A DNA stretch of 64,000 nucleotides from Blastocatellales bacterium (GCA_050249535.1 JBFWQI010000001.1:149541-213540); one strand, 5' to 3'. Counted from the first letter of the stretch, positions 14,931 to 61,463 are shown. The notes: generated by a model not told the origin, from the sequence alone. Numbers and translations: made by a program.

Positions 14931-17900
14931 ATGTCATACCGTCATTATGCCTGGGTTCTGTTGATACTGTTGTCGCCGGCAGTGGTGAATGGCGTCTCGG
15001 TTCTGGCGGAATTTCAGGAAGAGAGGGACCGCGGGGCGGGGCGGCCGGCTATGGAAGGATCGCCGGTCGCACGGCGACGTGACGAGCGAAGGAAGGTCAA
15101 GTCTCCGCCGAAACGACGGCTGTCGGAAATCCTGACGGGGCAGGTCGAGCCGGGAGAGAGGCCGCGAACAGATACCGGGCCCGGCGATGCGAACCGTGTG
15201 AACCGGCTGATGGAAAAGGCTGAAGCGCGTTATGACCAGCCACGTGAGGCGATGGAGTTCTTCAGGCTCAAGCGACTGCCGGAGGGGATGAAGAATATTC
15301 CGATCGAAAAGTATCTCGAAGCGGGCGAGCGGATGAAGGGCATGGCGCGATACTCGTCGCTGCTCGATCGCAAGATGGGCGCGGAAGAGTCGCTGAATCT
15401 GACCGCCGGGGGCGCTCAGGCGGGCGCCTGGCAGTCTCTCGGGCCGGGAAACATCGGCGGGCGGACGCGGGCTCTGGTGATCAACCCGCAGAATCCCAAT
15501 GTCATGTACTCAGCGGGCGTTTCGGGCGGTGTCTGGAAGACGGTCAATGCAGGCGCGACGTGGACGCCGATCGCGGATCTGGTTGGCAACATCACTGTCA
15601 GCTCGATCGCCATGGAGCCGGGAAGTCCCGATACGCTCTACATCGGCACCGGCGAGGGAGTGGCGATCTTTTCGCGCGATACCCAGGGCGATTTCAGGGG
15701 CGCCGGAATTCTGAAGACGACCGACGGCGGTCAGACGTGGACCAGACTCGAGTCAACCGCCGGCGAAGACTTCCATTTCGTCAACGATCTGGTCATCAGC
15801 CCCGTCGACAAGAACCGGATCTATGCCGCAACCAGATCCGGGATCTGGCGCTCGACGGATGCGGGCGTCTCGTGGACGAATATCCTGACGCCCAGAAACG
15901 ATTTCAACGAGACGGTCACCGGCGGTTGCCTCGACCTGGCGATCAGAACCGATGTCCAGTCCGATTACGTCTTCGCATCGTGCGGGACTTTCGAGAAGGC
16001 TTCCGTCTATCGCAACACTGACGCCTCGGGAGGAGGCCTGTGGACGATTGTTCTGTCGGAGGAGGGGATGGGACGGACGGCGCTGGCGATCTCACCCTCG
16101 AACCAGAGCATCGTATACGCGCTGGCTTCGAGCGTCGAGTTCGGTCCTTACGAGCTGGCGCTGTATGCCGTCTTCAGGTCGGACAACGGCGGCGACGGTT
16201 GGAATGCCGTGCTCCGCAACACGAGCCAGAACAAGCTGAGCACATCGATCCTGTCGATTCCGCAACTGGCGCTCGGCAGCGATTGCGGATCCAGCGAATT
16301 CGACGACTTCTTCGGGCAGGCCTGGTACGATCTGGTGATCGCGGTGGATCCGGTCGATCCCAACCGGGTCTGGGCCGGAGGCATCGACATCTTCCGATCG
16401 GATGACGGCGGTCTGAGCTGGGGGCTGGCCGGGCCGTCATACGCCAACACCAACTTCGATCTGGGGCCGATCCATCCGGATCATCATGTCATCGTCTTTC
16501 ATCCGCAGTATGACGGAACATCGAATCAGATAATGTATGTCGGCAACGACGGCGGGTTGTACCGTACCGACAATGCTCGCGCCGGAGTCGTCCTCAATCC
16601 GGCGGCGATCTGCGGTCCGATCAACCCCGGCGTCAAATGGATGAGCATCAACAACAATTACGGAGTGACGCAGTTCTATCACGGGACGGCGATGCCCGAT
16701 GGGAAGACGTTTTTCGGCGGAACGCAGGATAACGGTACGGTGCTCGGGACGGAATCTGCCGGCATCGACGGGTGGAAGGAGATCAATGGAGGGGACGGAG
16801 GCTTTGTCGCGGTCGATCCGACGGATCCGGCGACACTCTATGCTTCGTTCACCGGTATCTCGTTCAGAAAGAGCACCGACGGCGGATTGTCGTTCGGGAG
16901 CGCGACATACGGCATCGGTTCCGGCGACACGGGATTCTTCATCACGCCGTATGTCATGGATCCGAGCGAGCCCCAGGTTCTGTGGACCGGCGGCGATTAC
17001 ATCTGGCGGACGACCAGCGGCGCGTCGCGATGGGAGCGCGCCAGCGCCCTGACGGCCGGAACGACCAAGGTCAGCGCGATTGCCGTCGCTCCGACAGATT
17101 CCAATCGCGTAATGGTCGGAATGGGCGACGGGTATATTCTGCGAAACCAGTCCGCGCTGACCTCCGATTTCAATACGACCTGGCAGTTTAGCCGGCCGAG
17201 GGACGGCTACGTCTCATCGCTGACCTTCGATCCGCTCAACCGCGACATCGTGTATGCCACATACTCGACCTTCGGCGGGAAGCACGTCTGGCGTTCGATC
17301 GACGGCGGCGTGATCTGGACGAGCATCGACGGCTCAGGAAGCGGTGCGATACCGGATGTGCCGGTTCACTCGCTCGCCGTCGATCTGTCGAACACGTCGC
17401 GACTATACCTGGGCACCGATGTCGGGGTCTTCATCTCGAACGACGGCGGGGCGAACTGGGCCGTCGAGAACACCGGATTCGCCAATGTGATAACCGAGAC
17501 GCTGCAGATCAGAGTCATCAACGGCGTGACGATGCTCTTCGCGTTCACCCACGGGCGCGGAGCATGGCGGGTTCCGATCAACAATTCGGGATGCGGCTAC
17601 AGTCTCTCGAAATCCACGATCAGGGTCGGGGCCGCCGGTACGACGGGCAACTTGAATGTCAGCGCCGCACCCGCCGGGTGTAACTGGATGGCGTCATCCA
17701 ATGCCAACTGGCTGAGCGTCAGCGGTTCGGGCAGCAGCGACGGTGCAGCCGCCTGGTCGGTCGAGGAGAATACGGGCTTCGATTCCCGGACAGGCACCGC
17801 GACCATTGCCGGACGATCGTTCATTGTCATCCAGGACGGGCGAAGGGATGACGCCGTTCCCGTCGTGGCGATCACGTCGCCTTCCGGCGGACCTGTGACC

Positions 17901-20900
17901 GGCAACACGAGCGGCATGATCAGTCTGGCCGGAACTGCCAGCGACAACCGCGAGGTGACGATTGTCAGATGGAGGAACGAGCGCGGTCTGAGCGGGGTTG
18001 CGCAGTACAACTCCGCAGCCATGACCTGGTCGGCTGACGCAATTCCGCTGGCGACCGGATTGAACCGGATCACTGTCAGCGCTGAAGACGAGGCGGGCAA
18101 CATCGGTCGGACAGTGATCGACGTTAATTCGGTTCCCGCGTCGATTCTCGTTACCGTAGCCGGAAGCGGCAACAGCGGAAATTCCGGCGACGGAGGGCAG
18201 GCCGTCAGGGCGGACCTGTCACGCCCGATCAGGATAGATTTCGACACGGCAGGCAATCTCTATCTGACCGATTCAGACAACAACACCGTCCGCAAGGTGG
18301 CGCCCAACGGTGTCATCACGACCGTGGCCGGAAACGGAACCGAAGGGTTTTCGGGCAACGGCGGACCGGCGACGCAGGCGCAGCTCAACTTTCCAGTCGG
18401 AGTTGCGTTAGACGGCGCCGGAAACATCTACATTTGCGACAATTTCAACAGCGCAGTCAGGAAGGTAACGGCATCCAACGGCATCATCAGCACTCTGACC
18501 GGAAACGGCTCGGATGGATACGGCGGGGATGGCGGCCCGGCAGCCGCAGCGATTCTCAACAACCCGCAGAATGTGGCCGTCGATGCGGCCGGCAACGTCT
18601 ACATTTCAGATTTCGGCAACAACCGGATTCGCAAAATCAACGCGGCTGACGGGACGATCTCGACCGTGGCCGGGACGGGAGTCCAGGGCTTTTCGGGCGA
18701 CGGAGGACCCGCAACCTCGGCAATGCTCAACCTGCCGAACAATGTCTGGGTCGATAAATCCGGCAACATCTTCATTTCAGATGCCGGAAATAACCGGATC
18801 AGGAAGATCAACGCGGCGGATGGAGTAATCAGCACGATAGCCGGCAACGGAGCTCGCGGTTTCAACGGCGACGGCGGCCCGGCGCTGAATGCCGAACTGT
18901 TCGGGCCGGCATGCGCGATTACGGACACAGCCGGCAATCTTTATATCTCAGATCGTTCGAATCACCGTGTCAGACGCGTCGCCGCGGATACGGGGATCAT
19001 CACGACTATTGCCGGTCAGGGGACCGCCGGCTATTCGGGCGACGGGCTCGCCGCGATCTCCTCGGCGCTCAATGCGCCAACGGGGCTCGCATTCGATCCC
19101 GCCGGCAGACTGCATATCGCCGATCGTCAGAACCGACGCGTCAGAAAACTTGTCAGCGCCGTGGCGAACGACTCTGCTCCGCCGGTCATCGCGATCACCG
19201 ATCCGGGATCTCTGCCCGGCTATGTCACCGCCGAGAGTACGTTCAGGTTGTCCGGCACCGCCGCGGACAATACAGGCATCTCGCAGGTGATCTGGAGCAA
19301 CGATCGTGGAGGCAGCGAGCAGGCCTCCGGCCTTGAGAACTGGACCGTCCAGCGGGTGCCTCTGCAGGCCGGCGAAAACAGGCTGACGGTCACGGCCTGG
19401 GACTTCAACGGGAATGCCGCCAGCGCGAGTCTGACGGTGACATTCAACCCGCCGCAGATTCTGACAACCTATGCCGGCACGGGAGTCGAGGGCAACAGCG
19501 GCGAACCGGGAGCGGCGATTGCGGCGAGGCTCTCATTTCCGTCGGGCATCGCCTTCGACAAGCAGGGCAATCTGTACGTCGCCGAAGCCGGCAATCATCG
19601 GGTCAGAAAGATCACGCCGGGCGGTCTGATCATGGCCTTCGCCGGGAACGGGATGCTCGGTTCGTCCGGCGACGGAGGCCCGGCGACAGATGCGAGATTG
19701 AACGAGCCCACCAGCGTGGCTGTCGATTCCAAAGGGAATGTCTACATCGCAGACAACGGCAACAACCGTGTCCGGAAGGTATCGACGGACGGGACGATAT
19801 CGACCGTCGCGGGAACCGGAGCCGAAGGATTTTCAGGCGACGGAGGCCCTGCAGTCCAGGCACGACTCTATCTTCCGATCGGAATCGGCATCGATGGATT
19901 GGACAATCTGCTGATCGCCGACGCGGGGAATCTGAGGATCAGGAAGGTCAATGCCTCGACCGGCGTCATCTCGACGATTGCCGGCGACGGTCGCGTCGGA
20001 TTCGGCGGCGACGCCGGGCCGGCGACCGGTGCGCAGTTCAGGTTCCCGTACGGAGTGACCGTCGATCCGAGCGGCGTAATCTACATTATCGATGCGGCTG
20101 ACCATCGCGTCCGTCGAATCTCACCCGATGGCATTATCACGACCTATGTCGGGACCGGCGACGCCGGTTTCAGCGGGGACGGCGGACCTGCCGCACAGGC
20201 GCAGATCAATTTCGCCTCTTACATCAGGACCGATTCGGCGGGAAATCTGTATATCGCCGACTATGCCAATAACAGAATCCGCAAGGTCACACTGACGACC
20301 GGCATCATCACAACGATTGCCGGAACGGGTGTCGGAGCGTACGGAGGGGACGGATCCTCGCCGCTGCTGGCCGACCTGAATCTGCCCAACGACATCGCCT
20401 TCAGCCCGCAGGGCGATCTCTACATTGCGGATTACCGGAATCATCGCATCCGCAGGATCGCTGATCCGGCATCCTTCCTCGCGGTGACGGGCGTTTCGGC
20501 CGCCAGTTATCTCAGCGATGCTCTGGCGGGCGAATCGATAGTCGCGGCCTTTGGAGTCGATCTGGCGACATCGGTCAGGGTCGCCGGTCAGACGCCCTTG
20601 CCGTTCGATCTCGACGGCACTACCGTCAGGATCAGGGACAACGAGGGAGTCGAAAGACTATCGCCGCTCTTCTTCGTCGCGCCGGGGCAGATAAACTTCC
20701 AGGTTCCGCCGGGCACGTCGAGCGGACTGGCGACCATCTCCGTCACTTCGGGAAGCGGCAGCCTGTCGACCGGGACGTCCAGGATAGCCGCCGTCGCACC
20801 GGGTATCTTCTCGGCGAACTCCGATGGAAGCGGCGTCGCCGCGGCCGTTCTGCTGCGCGTCAAGGCGGACGGTTCGCAGACCTTCGAGACGGTCGCCAGA

Positions 20901-21200
20901 CTGGATAATGCCACCGGGCGGTTCGTCAGCATTCCCGTCGACCTCGGGCAGCCCGGCGATCAGGTCTTTCTGATACTTTTCGGCACCGGCATCAGATTTC
21001 TCAGCTCTCCGGCCGGTGCGTCGGCGACGGTCGGAGGAATGCCGGCTGAACTGCTGTTCTCCGGCGCACAGGGCTCGTTTGTCGGCCTCGACCAGATCAA
21101 TCTGCGCCTCGGTCCCGAACTTGCCGGCAAGGGAACCGTCGAGATCAGACTGACCATCGATGGACGCGTCTCGAATCCGGTCACACTGGAGATAAAATGA
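14931..21200 (+). CDS. Giant secreted protein (2089 aa): an N-terminal sortilin/BNR-like beta-propeller region, Ig-like domains, about 14 NHL repeats and a C-terminal Soli_cterm domain.
   Basis: There is a signal peptide. Asp-box motifs are present ([52 protein letters not shown]). Repeated NHL units of the form [46 protein letters not shown] occur. The C-terminus ([21 protein letters not shown]...[21 protein letters not shown]...) is homologous to the C-terminus of the 955-aa protein. Confidence 0.85.
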
Positions 21201-40394: not shown

Positions 40395-43300
40395 ATGCTC
40401 GCCATGAGTGGAAAAAGGCTGAAAGCCGAATTGTGGCTTCCTGACCGCATCACCTCCATCAGGATAGGTCTTCTTTTCCTTGCAGTCATATCCGTTCTCC
40501 AGTCGGATCGTGCGATTGTGACCGGGGAAGCGACCACTGGCGGCTCCAGCGGGTTGAGTCGCTCCGGCGCTGCGACGATCACCGTTCAAAACGCGAACGA
40601 CAGCGGGCCCGGCTCGCTTCGAGACGCTATCTCAGCCGCATCTCCCGGGGATACCATCAACTTTTCATCAGGAGTGGTAAGCCTCGGCGCGATCAATCTG
40701 ATCAGCGGTGAGTTGCTGATCAACAAGAACCTGAGGATCGAAGGACCCGGGCACGGATTGCTGGTTGTCCAACGAAGCGCTTCCGCTCCTGACTTCAGAA
40801 TATTGAAGATCACCGGCGGAGCGGTTGTCACAATAGCCGGGCTCGATATTGCCAACGGGAGGGCGACTAATACTTCCTTACCTCAAGAGGACGATGGCGG
40901 TGGAATACAGATTATCAGCAGCGACCTGACGCTCAGCGGGTGCGTGATAAATGGAAACCATGCAACAGGAAGCGGGGGAGGCATCGATCTCATCGGCGGA
41001 TTGCTGACCATCTCGGGATGTACAATTAACGACAATACTGCTGATACCGGCGGCGGCATTAATGTCTATTTCGGTGCTGTTCTGGCTCTCGATTCCTGCA
41101 CTATCAATGCCAACAGAGCGCAAAATGCATCCGCGATAGAGGTTGAGAACTCTGATGTCTACCTTACCAATGCGACTATCAGCGGCAACCTGACGCTGAC
41201 CGGCGGCGGCGCAATAAATAATTACGCGGCGACGGGGCAAAACTCAAAATTGGCATTTAACAACTGCACGGTCGTTTTTAATAAAAACTGGGGGGCGCTG
41301 GCCAAAGCTGATCCCGGCGGGCTGGCCGAGATCATTCTGTCCAGTTCGATTTTCGAGGACAATGGACAGAATTTCCAGACGAGCGGCTCCGGCGCATTTC
41401 TTACGAATATCTGCTGCAATTTTGACAGCGACGGTACGAGCGGTTTCGTTAACGGTGCGCAGGGCGGATTTGTGGGCAGCGCCAGTTCGCCCATTTCGGC
41501 TTTACTTGGTTCGCTGGCAGACAATGGGGGACTGACGAAAACGCATGCCCTGCGCTGGGGCAGTCCGGCGCTCGATGTCGGAGCGACCATCGGCGGGCCG
41601 GTTGTCGATCAGCGTGATAATTCGAGATTCGGGCCGGAAGCCGACGGCGACGGCGACGGATTCGGCGCAGCCGACATCGGCGCATTCGAGGTGCAGAAGT
41701 ATATTGTCAATAATGAGATGGATTCAGGGCCCGGATCCCTCCGCCAGGCAATCACTGACAACAACAATTACGGCGGTGGACTGATTGCGTTCGATATATC
41801 CGGAGCCGGGGTTCATTCGATTGCTCCCCTGACGCCGTTACCCGTTGTTACAAGAACCGTGACGATTGACGGTTATTCTCAGCCCGGCGCCATGCCGAAA
41901 ACGAGTTTTCCTTTCACCGGCACCGTCATCAATATTGAATTGAGTGGCGCGAATCTGGCGCAGGGTGAAGGGCTTGAATTGCAGGCAGCATACAGCGTAA
42001 TCAGAGGCCTCGCCATCAATGGGTTCACCAACGGGATCATGCTTCGCGGAAGCAATGCGTCATTCAACAGTATTCTGGGTAATTTCATCGGCACGCATAC
42101 GACGGGCAAAATAGCTGTGCCGAATACATTCTCAGGCGTCAACATTCTGGAAGGTGCCGCAGGTAATCGTGTCGGTACAGAGGCGTTTGCCGACCATAAT
42201 CTGATCAGCGGAAACCTTGGAGCCGGGATAATAGTTCAATCGCCGGGCACGACTTCGAACACTATCGTCAGGAATTCGATCGGTCTGACTGTCGGAGGCG
42301 GCACTACGCTGGGGAACAAGGCCGGGCCGGGCATAAATCCCGGGTTCGGCATACTGATAGGTTTCGGTGCCAATCAGACCACGATCAGGCAGAACTTCAT
42401 TTCCTACAATGAAGCCGCCGGCATCGCTGTATATTCGGACAGTACGGCTCCGCAGCCGAAAGGCAACAAGATCTTCGATAACAACAGGATCCATTCAAAT
42501 GGCGGTTTAGGAATAGATCTCGGATTTGATGGGGTTACTCAGAACGATTCGGACGACTCGGACAGCGGGCCGAACGATCTTCAAAATTTTCCGGTTCTTG
42601 ATCCGATCACTACGCCGGGAACAATCACCGGCACTCTCACCAGCATTCCCGGTAAAACCTATCGAATCGAGCTTTTTTCCAGCTCGAAATGCGACAGTTC
42701 GGGATATGGAGAGGGCGAAGAGCCGGTGTCGGCAATCACTGCCGTTAACACCGACCCACAGGGCAAATTAACCTTCAGTTTCGGATACACACCGCCTTCG
42801 ACAAGGCCATACATCACTGCGACCGCAACGAATAATGATACCGATGAAACATCAGAGTTTTCGGCGTGTGTATATATTTCTCCGACTCTGACGCTGGTCA
42901 ATAATGTAAATAACGACAATGGCGGGACGCTGACGGCAGGTGATTTTCCTGTCGCCATCGACGGAAGCCCGGTTTCATGGGGAGTATCAATACCGGTCAG
43001 TGAGGGATCTCATACTGCCAGTCAAACGACAAAAAGTGGCTACAATGCCTCAACCTGGGGTGGAGACTGCGCAGCCGACGGAACGATCACCTTGGCGCCG
43101 GGCGAGAACAAGACCTGTACGATCACCAACGACGATATCGCGCCGTCACTGACGCTGGTCAAACAGGTGGTAAACAACAACGGCGGCACTGCACTCACGA
43201 CGGATTTCATCCTGAGTGCCGCAGGCCCCACGCCGATCTCAGGCGCCGGCAATGCTGCCAGCGATGCGAGCTTCAAGGCGGGAGTCTACGCATTGTCCGA

Positions 43301-44645
43301 GACCAACCTGCCGGGATATGTGGCCAGCGGCTGGTTATGCACCGGCGGAGTGCTGACAGGCTCAGACCTCACGCTGGGAGTGGGCGAGTCGGCGGTCTGC
43401 GTAATTGCCAACGATGATATTCCTGCCCAACTGACACTGATCAAATCAGTAATTAATGACAATGGCGGGACGCTGACGGCCAATGATTTCCCTGTCTTTA
43501 TCGACGGCAATCCGGTTTCGTGGGGAGTCACATTCAATCTCAATGCAGGAGTATATTCGGCGAGTGAGACCACCAGCTCCGGCTATACTGCTTCGCCCTG
43601 GGGGGGAGACTGCGCTGCTGACGGGACGGTCGTCCTTGCGCCGGGCGACAGCAAGATCTGCAGGATTACCAATGACGATATCCCTCTGACCCCTCCAACA
43701 ATCACCGGGATGGTCGTCTTTGATAATCTGATCATCGCAAGCGGGACAGGTTATGTCGATCCGGTGCAGGTGCTGATCGACGGCGTCGGGTTTTACGACC
43801 CGGCGAAGGTGGAGAGTCAGGGGACCGTGATCAGGCAGGCCGGACTGCTTTCGGACGGACGAACGATCCTTCAGGCAACGCCGGCGGGCAAGCCGGTCAC
43901 CATAGAGATCGTCAACAGCGGCGGTTCGAGAACTGCATATACATACACGCGCAGCCGCACGTTTACCCCATCGGATGGGGTGAGCCGCAAGCCTCGCGTG
44001 CCGCCGATCCAGTTGACCAGTGTAGTCTTCGACGACATAGCCAAAACAGTAGAGATTACAGGCCTGCTGACAGGGCTGGCGCCGAATACCGTTTACACGA
44101 TCTATATTCTCTACACGCCCTCGGGTGACGACGGCTCTGAGACGAAGAGCTGTCAGGATGCGGCAAATTTAGAGAAGACCATCGTTCTCGAGGCATTCAC
44201 AATCAGGACGGACGAACGAGGTAATGCCAAATTCAACCGGAAATATCCGGTCGAAAAAGGGAAGGGCTTCATCAATGCGATCGCGATTCCGGCCACAGGT
44301 AACCAGGTTCCCGTGACCTCGAACTGCCTCGGTGCGGCTCCGCCTCCCGGTCCGGCGATCTTCGAGATCAGGCTTGACCTGCAATCCGGCCAGCAGAGCG
44401 ACGATCGGATGATCATCATCGGGTTCGGATTCAACGAACCCAGGGTCTTCATCAATGATATTCCGTTTGTCGAAAATCCGATGCCTGAAACCCATCAGAA
44501 TATTATCGGGCAGCAACTGGAGCTGAAGGGGAGTCTGGAAGGCGGCCTGAGAATCCGGGACCTGATTAAACCCGGAGCGACGGTGCGAATCAGGGTCACG
44601 AACGGCAACGGAGGCTCGACCCAGTACTTTTTCAGGTATCGATAA
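40395..44645 (+). CDS. Giant secreted or surface protein (1416 aa). It has a Pmp-like parallel beta-helix region, three tandem 90-95-aa beta-sandwich repeats and further C-terminal Ig-like domains.
   Basis: There is an N-terminal signal/anchor. Repeated GGGI...LTLSGCxINxN units resemble polymorphic-membrane-protein and right-handed beta-helix repeats. Three repeats (at about 42880, 43150 and 43430) follow the pattern [21 protein letters not shown]...[36 protein letters not shown]. Their DNA has diverged to about 75% identity. Confidence 0.7.
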
Positions 44646-44674
44646 TCGAACATTATCGACCCCGGAGCGGACGG

Positions 44675-48613
<3,939 letters not shown>

Positions 48614-48646
48614 TTTCATATTCCAGACGGCAATAATCTGATCCGA

Positions 48647-51600
48647 ATGAACCACCTCAACACGCCTCGAGGAGGCGATGAAAATCCGTATGTCGGCCCC
48701 CGGCCTTTCGAGACCGGGCGACGGCTCTTCGGCCGGGACAGGGAGACGGAGGATCTCTACTACCTGCTCAGCGCTGAGCGGATCGTGTTGCTCTATTCGC
48801 CGTCGGGCGCAGGCAAGAGTTCGCTGATTCAGGCCGGCCTTGTGCCGCGCCTGGCGGGCAAGTTCGATGTCTGGGGACCGACGCGCGTCAATCTGCAACC
48901 CTCCGGCGAGTTGCCCGCGGGAGTCAATCGTTATGTCAGGAGCGCCATGCTCGGGCTGGAGCAGGGCATACCCGAATCGCGCCGCCGCCCGGAGTCTGAG
49001 CTGGTCGGGCTGTCGCTGGCGGATTACGTCAGCGGGCGTCCGCGCAGGCGATCCGCGCCGGACAACATTGTGATCATCTTCGATCAGTTCGAGGAGATAC
49101 TGACCGTCGATCCGCTGGCGGTCGAGGCGAAGAAGGAGTTTTTCAATCAGCTCGGCGAGCTTCTGCTCGATCCCCGCATCTGGGCGCTGTTCGCGCTGCG
49201 AGAAGACTATCTGGCTCCGTTCGACACGTACGCTGAGATGATTCCGACGCACCTCAGAAACCGGTTTCGACTGGATCTGCTCGGGCGTGAGTCGGCGCGC
49301 GAGGCGATCGTCAATCCGGCTCGCGACGGCGGCCGCGAATTCGCCGATGAGGCCGTGGAAAAGCTGGTCAGCGATCTGGCGACGGTCAAGGTGCAACAGC
49401 CCGACGGGAAGTTCATAGACCAGCTCGGACAGCACGTCGAACCTCTTCAGCTTCAGGTCGTCTGCCGCCGGCTCTGGGAGAGGATGCCGGATGAAGACAG
49501 GCGCATCGATCTCGAGGATGTCCTCGAACTCGGCAACGTGACCGAGGCGCTGTCAGGTTATTACGCCGGTGAAGTCGGAAAACTGGCCGCGGGCGATGAC
49601 CGGACCGCTCGCGAGATCAGGGAATGGGTCGACGAAAAGCTGATCACTGCGGACGGCATCAGGTCGCAGGTGCTGCGCGGCGCCGGACGGAGCGAGGGGC
49701 TCGACAACGATCTGATCGCGCGGCTGATCAACACCCACCTCATCCGCGCCGAGCAGCGCGTCGGAGCGGTCTGGTACGAACTCGCCCATGACCGCCTGAT
49801 CGCTCCGATCAGAGAGGACAATCGCCGGTGGTTCGATTCGCATCTCCATCAGGTTCAGAAACTCGCCAAGATCTGGGGGGCGCAGGATGAGCCGCCGGGG
49901 CTTCTGCTGGCGGGGAAGGAGCTCGAGGAGGCCCGGCAATGGGCCGCCCGAAACGATCGGATTCTAGATCTCGAGCGCCGGTTCATCGAAAAATCGACCG
50001 TCCGTCAGGAGCAGATAGAACGCGAGCGCCGTCAGGCGATCAGGCAGCGCAGAATGCTCCGAATCGTGAGCGTGCTGACGGTCCTTGCGATCGCGGCTGC
50101 GATTGTGGCGTTCTGGCAGATGCGTGTGGCTGAACAGAAGGAGCGGGATCTGCAGGCAAGTCTCAGGACTTCGCGCGGTCTGCTCTACGTCGCCAGTCAG
50201 TTGCAGGCATGGGAAGCGTACGACGCCAGACAGTATTCCCAGGCCGCCGAGTATCTGGAAAGCTCCATGCCGGACGCGACGGTTGGAGGTCCCGATGTCA
50301 GAAGTTACGACTGGTATCTGCTCTGGCGGTTGATGCACGACGAAAAGCAGACTCTGGCCGGCCATCGTTCCAATGTCACCTCTGTCGTCTTCTTTCCCGA
50401 CGGGCGGACTGCGGCGAGCGGTGATGCCGGCGGCGAACTGAGAGTCTGGGATACGGCTTCCGGAAAAGAAGTGCGGACGATTGCGGATGCCTCCGATTCG
50501 ATCAGCTCGATGGCGCTATCCGGCGATGGAAGAATGCTGGCTGTCGGCGGAACGAAAGCAGTAAGGCTCTTCGAGACAACGAACTGGAAGATGATCAGGG
50601 AAATTGCGGCCATTCAGTCCCCGGCCCTCTCGCTTGCATTCGCGACCGGCGGGAAGATGCTGGCCTCAGGGCATGCCGACGGCACCGTCGTGCTCCGGAA
50701 TCCGGGAGATGGAAGTGAGCTTCAACCGCGCCTTGAAAAACATGACGCCGGCGTGATCGCGGTTTCATTCTCGCCGGACGGCAATTTCCTGGCCTGTGGC
50801 GATCTGGACGGCACAGTAAAGGTGTGGGATGTCGGGAACGGAAATCGACGGCAGGAGGCCTTGCTCCTGCTTCAGACCACGCTCACCTCGCTCGCATTTT
50901 CGCCGGACGGCAGCAAGCTGGCGATCGCATACGGAGCCGGCATCATCAGCCTGCGGAATGCGGCTGACCGCCGCGAAATATGGAAGACAACAAACGGCGG
51001 AGCTATCATCAACACGATACGGTTTTCGCCCGACGGTAAACTGCTCGCCTCCGCGTCGGTGGACGGGAGCATCAGGCTGATCGATGCGGCGACAGGCACT
51101 GAAGCGCGGGCGCTCAAGGGCCATCTCGCCAGCGTCAGATCCTTTGCCTTCTCTCCCGATGGGCGCTCGCTGGTCAGCGGAAGCCACGATCATACCGTCA
51201 GGATCTTCGATCTGACGGCGCTGCCTGAATATCCGAAACTTTCCGGACACGACAAGGACGTCATTGCCGTTCGCTATTCCGCCGACGGTCGCATGATCGC
51301 GAGCGGAAGCGAGGACGGGACGGTCGCCCTGTTCGATGCCGGGAGCCGCAAGTTGCGCTGGCGATCAGAAGACCAGGGATCGCCGGTCAATGCGATAGCG
51401 CTCAGTCCTGACGGGAGCCGTCTGGCAGGCGGCGCGGGCGACGGGAAGCTCCGCTTGTGGGATGCCGCGAACGGATCGACGCTCTGGCCTCAGCCGCAGG
51501 TCCACGGCGAAAGCATCAAGTCCGTCGCTTTTTCAACGGACGGAAAGTCGCTGGCCAGCGGTAGCGATGACGGTTCGATCGTGATTCACGCGGCGTCTGA

Positions 51601-52150
51601 CGGGAAGGTCGAGCGGGAGCTCAAAGGCCACGAAGGCGCGGTCATTGCGGTTGCTTTCTCGCCCGACGGCACTACGCTCGCAAGCGGAGGCGAGGACGGA
51701 TCGATCCGTCTTTGGGACTTCACAAAAGGAAACCTGATCAGAAAGCTCGACGGGCACAAGGTGCCGGTCAGTTCGCTCAGCTTCTCGATGAGCGGAACTT
51801 TACTTGCGAGCGGCAGCGACGATCAGACGGTCAGGCTGTGGGATGTTCGGAGCGGCGTCGCAGTCCGCTCGCTCGAAGGGCATAGTCTGTACGTGCTGGC
51901 AGTCGACTTCACGCCGGACGAGAGGACGCTGGCCAGCGTCAGCGACGGCGCGATATGGCTGTGGGACGTCGGAACCGGCAAACTGTTGCGAAAGATCAAA
52001 GAGGAGTTCGAGTCCGTCACGTCGGTCTCATTCTCGCCCGACGGGCGAACGCTGGCGGGCGGCATCAGCAACGGCAGTATCCATCTCTGGCCCGGCGCCC
52101 GGGACGAGCAGATCACGCGACAGTGCGGCAGGTGCGCATCGAAACGATGA
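48647..52150 (+). CDS. STAND-type P-loop NTPase (nSTAND-like, NPYxG...FFGRD family) followed by a predicted transmembrane helix and about 14 WD40 repeats (1167 aa).
   Basis: The N-terminal motif is NPYVGPRPFETGRRLFGRDRETEDLYYLL. Walker A is SPSGAGKSS at residues 51-59 and Walker B is IVIIFDQFEE at about 141-150. A hydrophobic helix (IVSVLTVLAIAAAIVAFW) lies at about residues 472-490, nt 50054-50117. Repeated WD40 units of the form GHxxxVxSVAFSPDGxxLASGSxDGTVRLWD run from about nt 50320 to 52140. Confidence 0.8.
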   Translation: MNHLNTPRGGDENPYVGPRPFETGRRLFGRDRETEDLYYLLSAERIVLLYSPSGAGKSSLIQAGLVPRLAGKFDVWGPTRVNLQPSGELPAGVNRYVRSAMLGLEQGIPESRRRPESELVGLSLADYVSGRPRRRSAPDNIVIIFDQFEEILTVDPLAVEAKKEFFNQLGELLLDPRIWALFALREDYLAPFDTYAEMIPTHLRNRFRLDLLGRESAREAIVNPARDGGREFADEAVEKLVSDLATVKVQQPDGKFIDQLGQHVEPLQLQVVCRRLWERMPDEDRRIDLEDVLELGNVTEALSGYYAGEVGKLAAGDDRTAREIREWVDEKLITADGIRSQVLRGAGRSEGLDNDLIARLINTHLIRAEQRVGAVWYELAHDRLIAPIREDNRRWFDSHLHQVQKLAKIWGAQDEPPGLLLAGKELEEARQWAARNDRILDLERRFIEKSTVRQEQIERERRQAIRQRRMLRIVSVLTVLAIAAAIVAFWQMRVAEQKERDLQASLRTSRGLLYVASQLQAWEAYDARQYSQAAEYLESSMPDATVGGPDVRSYDWYLLWRLMHDEKQTLAGHRSNVTSVVFFPDGRTAASGDAGGELRVWDTASGKEVRTIADASDSISSMALSGDGRMLAVGGTKAVRLFETTNWKMIREIAAIQSPALSLAFATGGKMLASGHADGTVVLRNPGDGSELQPRLEKHDAGVIAVSFSPDGNFLACGDLDGTVKVWDVGNGNRRQEALLLLQTTLTSLAFSPDGSKLAIAYGAGIISLRNAADRREIWKTTNGGAIINTIRFSPDGKLLASASVDGSIRLIDAATGTEARALKGHLASVRSFAFSPDGRSLVSGSHDHTVRIFDLTALPEYPKLSGHDKDVIAVRYSADGRMIASGSEDGTVALFDAGSRKLRWRSEDQGSPVNAIALSPDGSRLAGGAGDGKLRLWDAANGSTLWPQPQVHGESIKSVAFSTDGKSLASGSDDGSIVIHAASDGKVERELKGHEGAVIAVAFSPDGTTLASGGEDGSIRLWDFTKGNLIRKLDGHKVPVSSLSFSMSGTLLASGSDDQTVRLWDVRSGVAVRSLEGHSLYVLAVDFTPDERTLASVSDGAIWLWDVGTGKLLRKIKEEFESVTSVSFSPDGRTLAGGISNGSIHLWPGARDEQITRQCGRCASKR

Positions 52151-52173
52151 TCGGAATACCTGGAGAATAGAAG

Positions 52174-54843
52174 ATGGCGGATCAGTCGAAATTTCTGCAT
52201 TTCAACGGCATCAATGGAGCGACCGGCGATTACGGCATTCCACCGATGACCGGCGAGGAACTGGCCGGCTTCATCAAAGGTGAGTCGGCTCCCGAGAACC
52301 TTGCCGAGCTCAAGTTTCGCCGGCAGCAGGCCTCGCAGAGCCATTACGGCGTCAAGGAAGGCGTCGATCCGAAGAAACTCGACGAAGCCGGGTGGGGAGT
52401 GATCTTCGCGCACGATGCCGCGCCCGGGATCAGGGAGGCGCTCAAGCCTCTGCTCGACCTTCGCCAGGAGCAGGCCGGAACGCGGTTTCGCATTTACGAG
52501 GGCGGAAACGGGTATCGGGTCGGGAAGGACACCAAGAGTTCATTTCTTGCCAGGCACGGCGCCGGGCCCGGCCCTGCCGATCCGGACAAGGTGCCTTATT
52601 ACCTTCTGATCGTCGGCGGTCCTGATGTCATCCCCTATCGTTTTCAGTCGCAACTGGACGTCCAGTACGCCGTCGGCCGCATTCATTTCGAGACTCTCGA
52701 GGATTACGCCGTTTATGCTCAGAGCGTGGTCGCGGCCGAAAACGGCGGGATAAAGCTGGCGCGAAGGCTGAGCTTTTTCGGCGTGACGAATCCGGATGAT
52801 CCGGCCACCGGAGCTTCCGAACAGTCTCTGGTCAGCCCGTTGTATGCATATTTCAAGGACCGTCCCGGATGGCAGGTCGAAGCGATTCTCAAGGAGCAGG
52901 CCGGCAAGTCGAAGCTGGCTGAGTTGCTGGGAGGAGGCGCCACTCCGGCGCTGCTCTTCACTGCCAGCCACGGCATGGAGTTCCCTCTCGGGCATGCCAT
53001 GCAGATTCCGCACCAGGGGGCACTGCTTTGCAGCGACTGGCCGGGCCCGAAGAATTTTCACGGAGCGATCCCTGAAGACTTCTACTTCGCCGGTGACCAT
53101 CTGGCGAGTGACGCGAGACTGGCGGGACTGATCAGCTTCCATTTCGCCTGTTATGGCGGAGGCACTCCTGAACTGGACGAATTCGCCCAGCAGGCATTCA
53201 AGGGGCGCCAGGCCATCGCGCCGAAGGCTTTCCTGTCTGGTCTGCCCACACGGATGCTGAGCCACCCCAAAGGCGGGGCGCTGGCCGCGATCGGTCATGT
53301 CGACAGGGCATGGTCGACATCATTCGCATGGTCTGGGGCGGGCGCCCAGACGACGGTCTTCGAGAGCACTATCCAGCGCCTGATGGATGGCCATCCGGTC
53401 GGCTCGGCGCTCGAATATTTCAACGAAAGATATGCCGAGTTATCGACCGTTCTCAGCGATGAACTGGAAGAGATCCAGTATGGAAAGATCGTCGAACCGT
53501 ACGAACTGGCAGGCATGTGGACGGCCAACAACGATGCGCGCGGTTACATGATCCTTGGAGACCCCGCAACACGATTGCCGCTTGCGGCCGACGGGGAAGA
53601 ATCTCGTGAACGGCAGGCGATCGAGATCGTTCCATATACCGCGGGCAACGCGACGGCTCCGCCGCCGGTTGCTTCCGCGCCGGCTGATAGACCGCCGGCC
53701 GAACCCGGCCCCGCGAGCTTCAGCGTTCCCACAACGGCCGGGGACGATGTTCTCTTCAGCGCTTTTCACCCGCGGGCGCTCGATGTCGGAGAGTGGCAGA
53801 AACTGCTGATATACGCTCATCTGCAGGAAGCCCTCGATGCGATCAAGACCGACTCAGGGCAGGTGCTGGGATTGAAGTCGCCCGACTATCGACAGTCTGA
53901 GGCCAAAGCGACCGCCAAGATCGCCCATGGGACCGAAATCACACTCGTCCCGCAGGCGGATGGACTGGAATTCAAGCCTCAAAGCGCCACGCTGACGTGG
54001 TCAGGCGCATGGCAGCGTGCGGATTTTGAAATGGCCGCGACCGACAAGCGTGCCGGCCATGTCGTGACGGGAACGGTCGCATGCTATGTCGGCCCGTTGC
54101 TGATCGCCCAGATCAGGTTGCCGGTGGTAGTCAAGCGCCCCGGGGCTGCAATCGAACCGGAGGTCGACGGGCAGGCGGTCGAATCGGCCAAAATGTATCA
54201 GGCTGTCTTCGCCTCCTATTCACACGCCGACACGCAGGTGGTCGAGGCGGTCGAAGCCGCCTACAAAGCCCTCGGAATGGATTACCTGCGCGATGTGATG
54301 ACTCTCAAGAGCGGGCAGAAATGGTCCGATCAGCTGCTCAAGATGATCGACGATGCAGACATCTTCCAGCTCTTCTGGTCGGACAAGTCCAGCGCGTCAC
54401 CGTATTGCGAGCAGGAGTGGCAGTACGCGCTGAGCCTGGCAGAGCGCAAGGGGCCGGCCTTCATCCGGCCGGTCTATTGGCAGAAGCCGATTCCGAAGGT
54501 GCCGGAGGGACTTCGCGCGCTCCACTTCGCGCCGGTCGATTTCAGCCGTTTCATCGCTCCCGCCGCGAAGCCGGAACAGCCTGCGATTACAGCGCCGGTC
54601 GAAATTGACGATGAGCTCAAGAAACTGACCGTTTCGACATACACCGTATCCGATCCGGCGAATCCTCAAAATCCGCGACTCGTAGCGAGGTCGCGCATCA
54701 CGCTCGATGGCGATGTCGAGAACTTTGTGCTGGAGAATCTGACTGCTGACGATGAGAAATACCTTGAGCTTCACCATCGGATGTCGGGAGAGGCCGCGTC
54801 TGCGCGTCTGACATATATTGAAAAGCTCGCGAAGAATCGTTAG
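52174..54843 (+). CDS. Fusion protein (889 aa): an N-terminal clan-CD caspase/gingipain-like cysteine-peptidase-like domain, a proline-rich linker, a beta-rich middle domain and a C-terminal TIR domain.
   Basis: Candidate catalytic His266 in LLFTASHGMEF and Cys326 in ISFHFACYGGG show the clan-CD HG...AC spacing. The TIR signature runs from about nt 54190 to 54540: YQAVFASYSHADTQVVEAVEAAYKALGMDYLRDVMTLKSGQKWSDQLLKMIDDADIFQLFWSDKSSASPYCEQEWQYAL. It includes the conserved Glu of TIR NADases in the CEQE motif. Confidence 0.7.
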   Translation: MADQSKFLHFNGINGATGDYGIPPMTGEELAGFIKGESAPENLAELKFRRQQASQSHYGVKEGVDPKKLDEAGWGVIFAHDAAPGIREALKPLLDLRQEQAGTRFRIYEGGNGYRVGKDTKSSFLARHGAGPGPADPDKVPYYLLIVGGPDVIPYRFQSQLDVQYAVGRIHFETLEDYAVYAQSVVAAENGGIKLARRLSFFGVTNPDDPATGASEQSLVSPLYAYFKDRPGWQVEAILKEQAGKSKLAELLGGGATPALLFTASHGMEFPLGHAMQIPHQGALLCSDWPGPKNFHGAIPEDFYFAGDHLASDARLAGLISFHFACYGGGTPELDEFAQQAFKGRQAIAPKAFLSGLPTRMLSHPKGGALAAIGHVDRAWSTSFAWSGAGAQTTVFESTIQRLMDGHPVGSALEYFNERYAELSTVLSDELEEIQYGKIVEPYELAGMWTANNDARGYMILGDPATRLPLAADGEESRERQAIEIVPYTAGNATAPPPVASAPADRPPAEPGPASFSVPTTAGDDVLFSAFHPRALDVGEWQKLLIYAHLQEALDAIKTDSGQVLGLKSPDYRQSEAKATAKIAHGTEITLVPQADGLEFKPQSATLTWSGAWQRADFEMAATDKRAGHVVTGTVACYVGPLLIAQIRLPVVVKRPGAAIEPEVDGQAVESAKMYQAVFASYSHADTQVVEAVEAAYKALGMDYLRDVMTLKSGQKWSDQLLKMIDDADIFQLFWSDKSSASPYCEQEWQYALSLAERKGPAFIRPVYWQKPIPKVPEGLRALHFAPVDFSRFIAPAAKPEQPAITAPVEIDDELKKLTVSTYTVSDPANPQNPRLVARSRITLDGDVENFVLENLTADDEKYLELHHRMSGEAASARLTYIEKLAKNR

Positions 54844-54873
54844 CCGGATCAGTAATTCTGAAGGGATGATTAG

Positions 54874-56965
<2,092 letters not shown>

Positions 56966-56979
<14 letters not shown>

Positions 56980-59014
56980 CACAACTTCCGAAGCCTCGAT
57001 GGCCGGTCTGAATCCGTATATCGGTCCGAAGCCCTTCGAAACGGGTCGCCGTATTTTCGGGCGCGATCGTGAGACAGAAGACCTCTACTACCTGCTGAGT
57101 TCCGAGCGGATAGTGCTGCTGCACTCTCCCTCCGGGGCAGGTAAGAGTTCGCTGCTTCAGGCCGGACTCATCCCCCGACTGGCCGGGAGATTCGATGTCT
57201 GGGGGCCGACGCGCGTCAATCTCCGCCCGCCGCCTGATCTCCCCGCCGGCGTCAACCGATATATCCGCAGCGCCATTCTGGGATTCGAGGAGGGGATACC
57301 TCAAAGCAGGCGTCGAAGCGAAGACCAGCTCAATCAGATGACGCTGGCCGAATATGTCAATAACCGGCCGAGGAGGCGATCGGCTCCTGAAAACATCGTA
57401 CTGATCCTGGACCAGTTCGAGGAGATCCTCACCTCCGGTCCGCTGGAGATTGCAGCGAAGCGCGAATTCTTCTCGCAGATCGGCACGCTGCTGCTCAATC
57501 CCAGGATCTGGGCCATCTTCTCGCTTCGCGAAGATTATCTCGCCCCGCTAGATCCATATTCCGGCTATGTCCCAACGCACTTCAAGAACCGGTTTCGCCT
57601 GGACCTGCTGACCCGTGAAGCGGCACTCGAGGCGATCGCCGGCCCCGCTTTGCAGGGCGGCCGCGAATTCACTCCTGAAGCTGTCGGAAAAGTGATCAAC
57701 GATCTCTCGACTGTCAAAGTGCAGCAGCCTGACGGATCGTTCATCGATCAGCCTGGCGAATATGTCGAGCCGTTGCATCTGCAGGTTGTCTGTCGCCGGC
57801 TCTGGAATCAGATGCCGGGTGACGACCTCCGGATCGATCTCGAGGATGTGGTCAATCTCGGCGATGTGTCGGAGGCGCTGTCCGGATACTATTCGTCCGA
57901 AGTCCGCGAAATAGCCGGCGGCGATGATACCCTAGAGCGAGAAATCCGGGAGTGGGTCGGAAACAGGCTGATTCGCGCCGGCGGAATACGCGGCCAGGTA
58001 TTGAAAGGGGCAGGCAAGAGTGAAGGACTGGACAACGACCTTATCGCTCAACTCGTCGATGCTCACCTTGTCAGGGGTGAAGTGCGCTCCGGTGCCGCCT
58101 GGTATGAGCTGGCTCATGATCGTCTGATCGAACCTGTCAGATCCGACAATAATAAATGGTTCGATGACCACCTCCACAAATTTCAGAAGGTTGCGCTGAT
58201 CTGGAATGCCAACGGCAACCCTGACAGCCTGCTCCTGCTCGGAGCGGATTTGAACGAGGCGAACGAGTGGAAGCAGTCGAATGCAGACAGGCTGACCGAA
58301 GTCGAGAATAAATTTCTTGAATCCTCGAACGCAAAACAGTCGGCAATCGATCAGAGGCGCAGCCTGCGAAAAATGAAGGTCGCCGGATGGGTCCTGGCCG
58401 CCGTGGTGCTCATTCTTTCAATCCTGGGTATTAATCTCTGGCTGGTTTATAAGCAGGTGGTGGCTGCCTGGTCCGAAGCGAAAATTCAAAGCGAACTCGC
58501 CAGTCAGCAGAAAATAATCGCTGAATCCAACATGAGGCTGGCGCAGGCTGAAGAGAAGAAGGCCAGGGACCTCAGCGAAGCTGCTCGCCAGCTCGCAGCG
58601 CGCGAACTTGCGCTCAAGCTGCAGAGCCTCGCCCGGCAGAAAAAACTCGACGAGGTGAGCGAAGTCATCGAGTCCATCAAGATAATCGCAGACAATGAAT
58701 TCAGATTCTCGGTCTCTGTCGCCCCGGCCGACGCCGAAGGGACAGGATTCGATACACTCTGGTGGATCGAATTACACCCGAAAAAGGAGTCGCTCGAAGG
58801 GAAGGCTGAAAAGATCGCGAGGATTTATTACATCCTCAATCACGAATCCTTTTACCAAAACCTGCGCGTCGGGCTGCCACAGAACAATTTCTTGTACAAG
58901 TATCGCGGATGGGGCTGCCTCGAAGAGGTGATGGCGATCGTCGAGTACAAGGATCCGAAGACTGCACCGTCAATCTCGTTCTTCGATCAATGCGCTGAAT
59001 GGAAGGAAAAATAG
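56966..59014 (+). CDS. Second STAND-type NTPase, paralogous to the 48647-52150 gene. It has a transmembrane helix, a coiled coil and an unknown C-terminal domain of about 110 aa in place of the WD40 repeats.
   Basis: MAGLNPYIGPKPFETGRRIFGRDRETEDLYYLLSSERIVLLHSPSGAGKSSL is about 80% identical to the first NTPase over roughly 400 aa, with Walker B ENIVLILDQFEE. A transmembrane helix (VAGWVLAAVVLILSILGINLWLV) lies at nt 58378-58452. A coiled coil of about 70 aa (SELASQQKIIAESNMRLAQAEEKKARDL...) follows. The start is ambiguous: 56966 overlaps the upstream gene by 14 nt, 56999 is the MAGLNPY start, and the ORF-track start is 56936. Confidence 0.75.
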
Positions 59015-59028
59015 AATGGGAGGCAAAG

Positions 59029-61463
<2,435 letters not shown>

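Follow-up and report, generated by a model that had tools for sequence, protein, structure and literature searches.

The window analysed here is a stretch of 64,000 nucleotides (nt) of a Blastocatellales bacterium (GCA_050249535.1 JBFWQI010000001.1:149541-213540), and all window coordinates are given relative to its first letter (Table 1). Its central feature is an open reading frame (ORF) for a protein of 889 amino acids (aa), in which a protease domain resembling the gingipains (Peptidase C25) is followed by a linker, an immunoglobulin (Ig)-like domain, a TIR domain and a conserved tail. Directly upstream lies a gene for an nSTAND1 nucleoside triphosphatase (NTPase) with WD40 propellers, and directly downstream a gene for a CHAT protease fused to a SIR2-like domain. 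Our results show that the ORF is one part of a widespread three-gene system of nSTAND1 NTPase, CHAT protease and C25-like protease. The first-pass annotation of this DNA had already delimited the ORF; its borders, strand, length and ATG start were confirmed exactly, and so were, by codon coordinates, the positions of His266-Gly267, Ala325-Cys326 and the TIR residue Glu748. The reverse strand across the ORF contains many stop codons.

In peptidases of clan CD, the catalytic dyad consists of His-Gly followed by Ala-Cys, with the His before the Cys and each of them behind a hydrophobic beta-strand. The same order was found in the protein from the window. His266-Gly267 is part of LLFTASHG and follows a predicted strand at residues 260-264, and Ala325-Cys326 is part of ISFHFACYGGG and follows a predicted strand at residues 320-324. 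The protein holds four HG and two AC dipeptides, so that these motifs on their own are weak evidence, and the case rests on conservation and fold. Among the relatives, His266 and Gly267 were invariant (91/91), while Cys326 was kept in 89/91; the two exceptions have Ser at this position and occur in extra tandem copies of the domain. Asp209 was invariant in 91/91 related domains, and the same holds for Arg169, Trp289 and Arg378. Within the catalytic subdomain, Asp209 comes behind the first strand, and it is a candidate S1 residue.

The fold was assessed with an AlphaFold2 (AF2) model of residues 1-489, which was built from a 54-sequence alignment and was confident (predicted local distance difference test score, pLDDT, 88.8; predicted template modelling score, pTM, 0.90). 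The modelled N-terminal domain has the clan-CD fold with the two-subdomain layout of the gingipains, each subdomain being of the alpha/beta type. Foldseek matched it to Kgp with an E-value of 5e-10, and below the gingipains the structural neighbours were separase (16.6), CHAT/Csx29 (14.4), metacaspase (12.0), PorU (11.0), legumain (10.4) and caspases (about 9); the match to PorU was far weaker than those to RgpB and Kgp. Only the fold comparison worked, as sequence searches of the PDB with the full protein and with a profile of the N-terminal domain gave no meaningful match. The Pfam model Peptidase_C25 (PF01364) scored 28.5 bits against a cutoff of 23, but only over aa 360-468 (profile 288-374), the C-terminal third of the domain. 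In four homologues (P0144, P0171, P0220 and P0168) the PF01364 match covers roughly profile 110-374. The HG...AC motifs had been read in the first-pass annotation as those of a clan-CD peptidase, and this reading is upheld by the fold match to gingipains together with the conservation of the dyad. The fold, the dyad and the Pfam score all place the protease domain in family C25, and it is probably catalytically competent.

The best-matching proteins, RgpB and Kgp of Porphyromonas gingivalis (MEROPS C25, clan CD), have the His-Gly ... Ala-Cys arrangement after hydrophobic strands in common with our protein. However, sequence identity is only 13-15%, and the protein from the window lacks a signal peptide, a gingipain-type prodomain and the C-terminal domain for type IX secretion. 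Further differences are its fusion to intracellular effector domains, its linkage to an NTPase and a His-Cys spacing of 60 residues, compared with 33 in the gingipains. Since there is no signal-peptide-like N-terminus and the attached domains are directed at nicotinamide adenine dinucleotide (NAD), we infer that the protein is cytoplasmic.

The protease domain is preceded by a short N-terminal segment with the motif F10-N-G-(I/V)-(N/D)-G-x-(T/S)-G18-x-Y20, of which F10, N11, G12 and G18 are near-invariant in relatives. The motif was modelled with high confidence (pLDDT 93 at aa 11-20) and the connector that follows, aa 37-60, with low confidence (pLDDT 53-62 at aa 31-60). No Pfam model matched above threshold in aa 1-60 or in the N-terminal 70 aa as a whole. 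An amyloid-like signalling motif was considered for FNG(I/V)(N/D)GxxGxY and rejected: the segment is predicted, with high confidence, to be docked on the protease body, and the neighbouring proteins showed no copy of it.

Behind the protease domain, the first-pass annotation had postulated a Pro/Ala-rich linker and a beta-rich middle domain, and both proved real in the AF2 model and in Foldseek. The model of residues 490-889 reached a pLDDT of 85.1. Within the linker confidence was low at about aa 490-526 (pLDDT about 47-56 at aa 490-519). The linker is variable in sequence apart from the motif E-R480-(P/Q)-x-I, in which R480 is kept in 76 of about 80 ungapped sequences. A second conserved Arg, R345, lies in F-K-x-R345-x-x-I-A-P, in the flexible loop after the catalytic Cys, and both R345 and R480 read RQAI in our protein. 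These two residues may be processing sites, as candidates and nothing beyond that. The middle domain is an Ig-like beta-sandwich with one inserted helix, modelled at pLDDT >90. It has no Pfam match above threshold, its Foldseek matches are generic Ig/fn3-like accessory domains only, and among the related loci it is limited to the members that carry a TIR domain.

The TIR domain is well supported by sequence (Pfam TIR_2, E 4.8e-17, with a score of 63 bits and a cutoff of 28) as well as by structure, with Foldseek matches to MyD88, TRR-2 and the SPARTA TIR at probability 1.0. Its motif S742-P-Y-C-E746-Q-E748 contains the predicted catalytic Glu748, and 65 full-length homologues all have Glu at both 746 and 748. 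In line with the earlier proposal, Glu748 aligned with the Glu of WCLDEL in the plant TIRs RUN1 (6o0w) and AtTIR (3jrn), although the pairwise E-values were weak (0.25-1.2). The WCLDEL Glu of RUN1 is the catalytic residue of TIR NADases. Going by these residues, the domain appears to be of the NAD-cleaving type, with its predicted catalytic Glu intact.

The first-pass annotation was right about the TIR domain, but not about its position at the C-terminus, since a conserved tail of about 75 aa (aa 813-887) comes after it. The tail is modelled as three strands and a long helix, carries the motifs TxY and LDGD and matches no Pfam model, including the families of effector-associated domains (EADs). 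In the related loci, the tail profile matched the C-termini of most C25-like proteins, standalone proteins of about 110-130 aa and a fusion with a GH108 lysozyme. In a large protein database it matched almost only standalone proteins of 105-131 aa, with no fusion partners beyond those in the loci. Neither the NTPase nor CHAT-SIR2 was found to carry the tail, and within the window it occurs only on the C25-TIR protein. The lysozyme case (L017 7011-7988) combines GH108 and PG_binding_3 with the tail domain, next to a C25-like gene, and suggests that the tail is a portable adaptor for different effectors.

Two further genes touch upon the tail. In Chloroflexota and some other lineages, in 25-32 loci, they are conserved directly downstream of the C25-like gene. 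The first encodes a protein of about 265 aa with a hydrophobic C-terminus, part of which matches the tail profile, and the second a standalone tail copy of about 125 aa. An example is the pair at L052 11911-12693 and 12949-13341, and similar pairs are present in L048, L084, L041, L036, L038, L040, L045 and others. Neither protein has a Pfam match, and both genes are absent from the window.

A homologue search with the protein from the window returned more than 4,330 matches, and an exhaustive search of cluster representatives returned 1,856 clusters (50% identity) at E ≤ 1e-30. At least 563 stretches in GTDB species-representative genomes encode a relative. The full C25-Ig-TIR-tail architecture is confined to Acidobacteriota-type sequences (48-95% identity). 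The C25-like domain of about 480 aa is by itself 55-67% identical in Chloroflexota, filamentous cyanobacteria, Desulfobacterota and others. Most proteins of the family have about 600 aa and consist of the protease, a linker and the same tail. Other members carry as cargo Endonuclease_NS, Trypsin_2 plus Endonuclease_NS, Peptidase_S8 (subtilase), DUF3160, HEAT repeats or nothing at all, and some have a metallophosphatase at the N-terminus. Hence, the Ig-like and TIR domains are a lineage-specific cargo, one of several exchangeable ones, on a constant protease. The C25-TIR fusion can already be seen in databases, where automatic annotation labels some homologues 'TIR domain/Peptidase family C25'.

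Some family members have two or three C25-like copies in tandem, several of them without the Cys. P0040 (1298 aa) has three such copies, all of which lack the catalytic Cys, and in P0121 (1641 aa) and P0131 (1463 aa) an nSTAND1 NTPase is fused to tandem C25-like domains with no transmembrane (TM) helix between them. In view of these fusions and the Cys-less copies, C25-like domains can sit at the 'sensor' end of an NTPase and can be catalytically dead.

To survey the neighbourhood, 79 loci were taken from species-representative genomes and their six-frame translations were searched with the domains of the window. Neighbours were counted as homologues within 10 kb, in those 43 loci that extend for at least 6 kb to either side; since each query was a single sequence, the counts are lower bounds. 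In 34/43 of these well-flanked loci, which belong to Acidobacteriota, Chloroflexota, filamentous cyanobacteria and others, the C25-like gene has a homologue of nSTAND1 and/or CHAT within this distance. Counted by domain, CHAT is present in 32, nSTAND1 in 27 and SIR2 in 16 of them. CHAT is often fused to SIR2 in the related loci, and the NTPase is usually followed by one TM helix and WD40 repeats. An orthologous acidobacterial locus (L001) has the same trio of nSTAND1-WD40, C25-TIR and CHAT-SIR2, and this arrangement is syntenic in related Acidobacteriota. In many Chloroflexota the gene order is CHAT-SIR2, then nSTAND1-WD40, then the C25-like gene. In cyanobacteria, the C25-like gene adjoins a single CHAT-nSTAND1-WD40 fusion of about 1,600 aa.

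The version of the C25-like protein with trypsin and nuclease cargo likewise stands beside nSTAND1-WD40 and CHAT-SIR2, and most systems of the family have CHAT-SIR2 and a C25-like protein with no TIR domain. The C25-like domain is also the slowest-evolving part of the system. Its median identity to the window is 59%, versus 43% for CHAT, 38% for SIR2 and 44% for the NTPase (32 loci). The first-pass annotation had read the protein as a protease tethered to an NADase; it had both domains right and overlooked the exchangeable cargo, the C-terminal tail and the conserved neighbourhood, and the protein is more than a self-contained pair of domains.

In the window itself, the genes of the system form a run on one strand, with gaps of 23 nt between the NTPase and C25-TIR genes and 30 nt between the C25-TIR and CHAT-SIR2 genes, and an overlap of 44 nt between CHAT-SIR2 and a second nSTAND1 gene. 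The motifs of the CHAT dyad, VCHG and LASCES, are intact in CHAT-SIR2. The two nSTAND1 proteins are paralogues with 55% identity over about 610 aa. Their C-terminal parts differ, with WD40 propellers in the first and a coiled-coil region in the second, where a match to pYEATS was weak and below the cutoff (E 0.003-0.008). In the partner proteins, the regions outside the assigned domains had no Pfam match above threshold. A scan for promoters and terminators at 44000-60000 yielded counts at or below the shuffled expectation, and is therefore uninformative on operon structure.

Table 1. Positions of the C25-TIR gene, its predicted domains and residues, and its neighbours, in nt of the window.
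Feature	Position (nt)	Strand	Residues (aa)	Remarks
C25-TIR ORF	52174..54843	+	889	ATG start; C25-like protease, linker, Ig-like domain, TIR domain, tail
N-terminal segment	52174..52353	+	1-60	conserved; low-confidence connector at aa 37-60
Gingipain-like (Peptidase C25, clan CD) catalytic domain	52354..53583	+	~61-470	two alpha/beta subdomains
His266-Gly267	52969..52974	+	266-267	predicted catalytic His
Ala325-Cys326	53146..53151	+	325-326	predicted catalytic Cys, codon 53149-53151
R345	53206-53208	+	345	candidate processing site
Pro/Ala-rich linker	53584..53751	+	471-526	
R480	53611-53613	+	480	candidate processing site
Ig-like beta-sandwich	53752..54135	+	~527-654	
TIR domain	54205..54546	+	678-791	TIR_2
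Glu748	54415-54417	+	748	predicted catalytic Glu
C-terminal tail domain	54610..54834	+	813-887	
nSTAND1-TM-WD40 protein (upstream partner)	48647..52150	+	1167	Walker A GAGKS; nSTAND1 E 7.6e-39, WD40 E 2.4e-116 (Pfam)
TM helix of the first nSTAND1 protein	50057-50122	+	~471-492	predicted; the only one
CHAT-SIR2 protein (downstream partner)	54874..56979	+	701	CHAT E 3.5e-26, SIR2_2 E 2.7e-14 (Pfam)
Second nSTAND1 NTPase	56936..59014	+	692	nSTAND1 E 2.9e-35 (Pfam)
TM helix of the second nSTAND1 protein	58382-58450	+		the only one
'Choice-of-anchor Q' protein	40395-44645	same strand	1416	29-nt gap to next gene
Outer-membrane beta-barrel	44675-48613	same strand	1312	CarboxypepD_reg domains; 33-nt gap to nSTAND1 gene

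In each nSTAND1 protein of the window, the NTPase module is followed immediately by one strongly hydrophobic helix, whose N-terminal side is flanked by an Arg-rich stretch. The same helix is present in 37/43 nSTAND1 segments of the related loci, always between the NTPase and the WD40 repeats. A STAND protein with this helix is predicted to span the membrane once, and because the N-terminal flank of the helix is positively charged, the WD40 propellers are predicted to face outward according to the positive-inside rule.

The domain identities, the conserved active-site residues, the exchangeable cargo, the gene linkage and the nSTAND1-C25-like fusions established here fit a model in which the protein is a cytoplasmic C25-type protease with an Ig-TIR cargo. 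It would be one component of a conserved nSTAND1-TM-WD40 / CHAT-SIR2 system, in which the NTPase drives protease activation. We prefer this model, and would give it an even chance of being correct. In such a system, the WD40 part would detect a signal, upon which the cytoplasmic NTPase modules would assemble in dependence on nucleoside triphosphates (NTPs). The assembly would gather the two clan-CD proteases, CHAT and C25-like, and activate them by proximity, possibly as a cascade. Cleavage in the flexible linker or linkers would then liberate or unmask the TIR domain, as well as SIR2 on the partner protein, and the two effectors would use up NAD+, so that the cell stops or dies. Inferred parts of this scheme are the enzymatic activities, the sequence of steps, the sites of cleavage, the topology in the membrane and the trigger. 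The first-pass annotation had suggested that the tethered protease controls the TIR domain by proteolysis in cis or in trans, which is plausible.

A more elaborate version of the model resembles the apoptosome, and we consider it doubtful. An extracellular or periplasmic cue received via WD40 would lead to nSTAND1 assembly on the cytoplasmic side, then to activation of CHAT as initiator, and CHAT would process the highly conserved gingipain-like protease as executioner, in a two-tier clan-CD cascade. The executioner would cut itself or be cut at conserved Arg sites, and exchangeable death effectors would be released: TIR here, and nucleases, proteases or lysozyme elsewhere. The tail would in that case be a new homotypic adaptor or inhibitor.

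Several points weigh against NTPase-driven protease activation as proposed above. In the nSTAND1 fusions P0121 and P0131 the C25-like copies occupy the C-terminal 'sensor' position, and some copies in the family are Cys-less; copies at this position fit a binding or regulatory role as well as that of an executioner. Moreover, a STAND or CHAT neighbour is missing from 9/43 well-flanked loci, among them those of a full-length C25-TIR homologue (L004) and a minimal homologue (L002). In view of these loci, the protein may also act alone or with partners encoded elsewhere. PADLOC and NCBIfam gave only weak matches to TIR, SIR2 or CHAT models in the window and no known defence system. The immune role of the system is an assumption by analogy, and cleavage of the linker is a candidate event.

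Alternatively, the system might be a non-immune module that serves programmed cell death, kin recognition or development in multicellular or filamentous bacteria, and that receives an extracellular cue via an outward WD40 part. The family is indeed common in filamentous cyanobacteria and Chloroflexota, the TM helix with its positively charged N-terminal flank is widespread among the nSTAND1 segments, and related systems are enriched in multicellular prokaryotes (PMC7159879). Yet the topology is a prediction, the effector set of TIR, SIR2, nucleases and proteases is typical of abortive-infection systems, and L001 has toxin-antitoxin-type HEPN/MNT neighbours. We regard this role as unlikely, albeit the least unlikely of the four alternatives considered here; it bears on what triggers the system and what purpose it serves, and the molecular mechanism could be the same. 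Next in probability, and already improbable, is that the C25-like domain serves mainly for binding, as an adaptor or as a transpeptidase rather than as an executioner protease; it could be a peptide sensor or decoy of the NTPase, or a PorU-like sortase that acts on tail-bearing proteins. The tandem copies at the sensor position of P0121 and P0131, the Cys-less copies of P0040 and others, the unusually high conservation of the domain, and the tail domain common to several adjacent gene products in related loci would all suit such a role. However, the His/Cys dyad is essentially invariant in single-copy members, which favours catalysis, no tail-bearing partner is encoded in the window, and PorU is a much poorer structural match than RgpB and Kgp.

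More improbable again is a self-contained protease-TIR toxin, in which autoproteolysis of the linker in cis would control the TIR domain and neighbours would not be needed. It could draw on the flexible linker with its conserved Arg and on the nine loci, L004 and L002 among them, that lack STAND/CHAT within 10 kb. We disfavour it because the neighbourhood is conserved in the great majority of well-flanked loci across phyla; in addition, this neighbourhood is retained when the cargo is swapped, nSTAND1-C25-like fusions exist, and a toxin that has neither an outside trigger nor an antidote would be difficult to restrain. The lowest probability was assigned to a Thoeris-like mechanism. There, the TIR domain would make a nucleotide signal from NAD+ that switches on the neighbouring SIR2 (or CHAT), with the C25-like domain as regulator or sensor of TIR. 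TIR and SIR2 are encoded by adjacent genes, PADLOC gave weak matches to a ThsB-type TIR (E 0.005-0.008) and, over the SIR2 region, to a ThsA-type model (E 3.9e-9), and the activation of a caspase-like protease by TIR-made signals has a precedent (10.1101/2024.10.24.620036). Nevertheless, most systems of the family lack TIR, so that TIR signalling cannot be their core logic, and for this reason we disfavour the mechanism. The PADLOC matches are also far below the level that identifies the family, and Pfam detected no SLOG, Macro, SAVED or other known signal-binding domain in CHAT-SIR2. Likewise, membership of Thoeris proper (ThsB TIR plus ThsA SIR2-SLOG or Macro) was rejected, since the TIR domain is fused to a protease, no SLOG or Macro was detected and only the weak PADLOC matches were obtained.

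Among known systems, the type III-B CRISPR-CBASS hybrid with SAVED-CHAT and PCaspase likewise has two clan-CD proteases in one immune-type locus, and is a precedent for a cascade from CHAT to a caspase-like protease (Steens et al., 10.1101/2023.06.23.546230). In our system, however, nSTAND1-WD40 is the sensor in place of a SAVED domain with its cyclic oligoadenylate ligand, a C25-like protease stands where the other system has a caspase (C14)-like one, and NADase domains are present on both proteases. Type IV Thoeris (10.1101/2024.10.24.620036) also unites TIR and a clan-CD protease in one system. There, they are separate proteins that communicate by a diffusible nucleotide, whereas here they form one polypeptide and TIR is dispensable in most family members. 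Known STAND-WD40 systems with a CHAT effector have a STAND NTPase, WD40 and the caspase-like CHAT in common with the present system. They differ in that nSTAND1 has a predicted TM helix between NTPase and WD40 here, and in that a second, C25-like protease is conserved alongside.

The EACC1-caspase systems and the NTP-dependent conflict systems (PMC7159879, PMC8195603) share with our loci the nSTAND1 clade and the pool of effectors (TIR, SIR2, trypsin, NucA endonuclease, S8, lysozyme), and their distribution over phyla is biased in a similar way. The two-gene EACC1-caspase systems combine a constant N-terminal peptidase of the caspase superfamily with highly variable effectors, for which autoproteolytic release has been proposed (PMC7159879). 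In contrast, the partner here is not an EACC1 membrane protein and the peptidase is C25-like. The sharing of the tail resembles the effector-associated domain principle of Kaur et al. (PMC7159879), as in related loci it is found on the C25-like protein, on the proteins of about 265 aa and about 125 aa and on a lysozyme. It differs in that the tail was found on neither the NTPase nor CHAT-SIR2, is restricted to the C25-TIR protein in the window, and matches none of the Pfam EAD models of the conflict systems of Kaur et al. Neither PMC7159879 nor PMC8195603 mentions C25 or gingipain. In the literature, we found no description of the trio of nSTAND1-TM-WD40, CHAT-SIR2 and C25-like protein, nor of C25/gingipain with TIR, CHAT or STAND. 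A STAND NTPase, a peptidase and nucleotide-targeting effectors are brought together by adjacent genes in a neighbourhood conserved in 34/43 loci, and the system belongs, in a broad sense, to the STAND-centred conflict systems in which caspase-like peptidases and NADase effectors occur.

To our knowledge, almost all gingipain-type proteases described so far are secreted virulence factors. If the preferred model of NTPase-driven protease activation holds, they would also have a large cytoplasmic branch, with regulated delivery or activation of NADases, nucleases and other toxic domains. Bacteria would then have a second cascade in which two caspase-like proteases act, and with a STAND NTPase to drive it, its design would be nearer to the animal apoptosome than that of the CRISPR-linked SAVED-CHAT/PCaspase. 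Furthermore, the TM helix between NTPase and WD40 suggests a STAND sensor directed at the exterior of the cell, whereas Avs and NLR proteins are cytosolic. As the C25-like domain evolves unusually slowly, it offers a good handle to find and classify such systems, and the fused TIR domain would give a simple NADase read-out for control by the protease.

The genes that flank the system vary. The orthologous locus L001 has no second nSTAND1 gene after CHAT-SIR2; in its place are a gene for an unknown protein of 268 aa, another of the AlbA_2/Schlafen-like type and a HEPN/nucleotidyltransferase pair (around L001 16280-17392), and this segment looks like a variable hotspot beside the system. On the upstream side of the window, the outer-membrane beta-barrel gene and the 'choice-of-anchor Q' gene were considered as parts of the system and rejected. 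They are syntenic only in the close acidobacterial relatives L001 and L006 and absent from other phyla, and their products are probably unrelated to the system. The remaining window is ordinary chromosomal sequence, including genes for EF-G, RelA/SpoT, G6PD and glycogen debranching enzyme. An ORF of 2089 aa at 14931-21200 contains NHL/teneurin-like beta-propeller repeats, bacterial Ig domains and Sortilin/BNR-like repeats, and probably encodes a large surface protein unrelated to the finding reported here.

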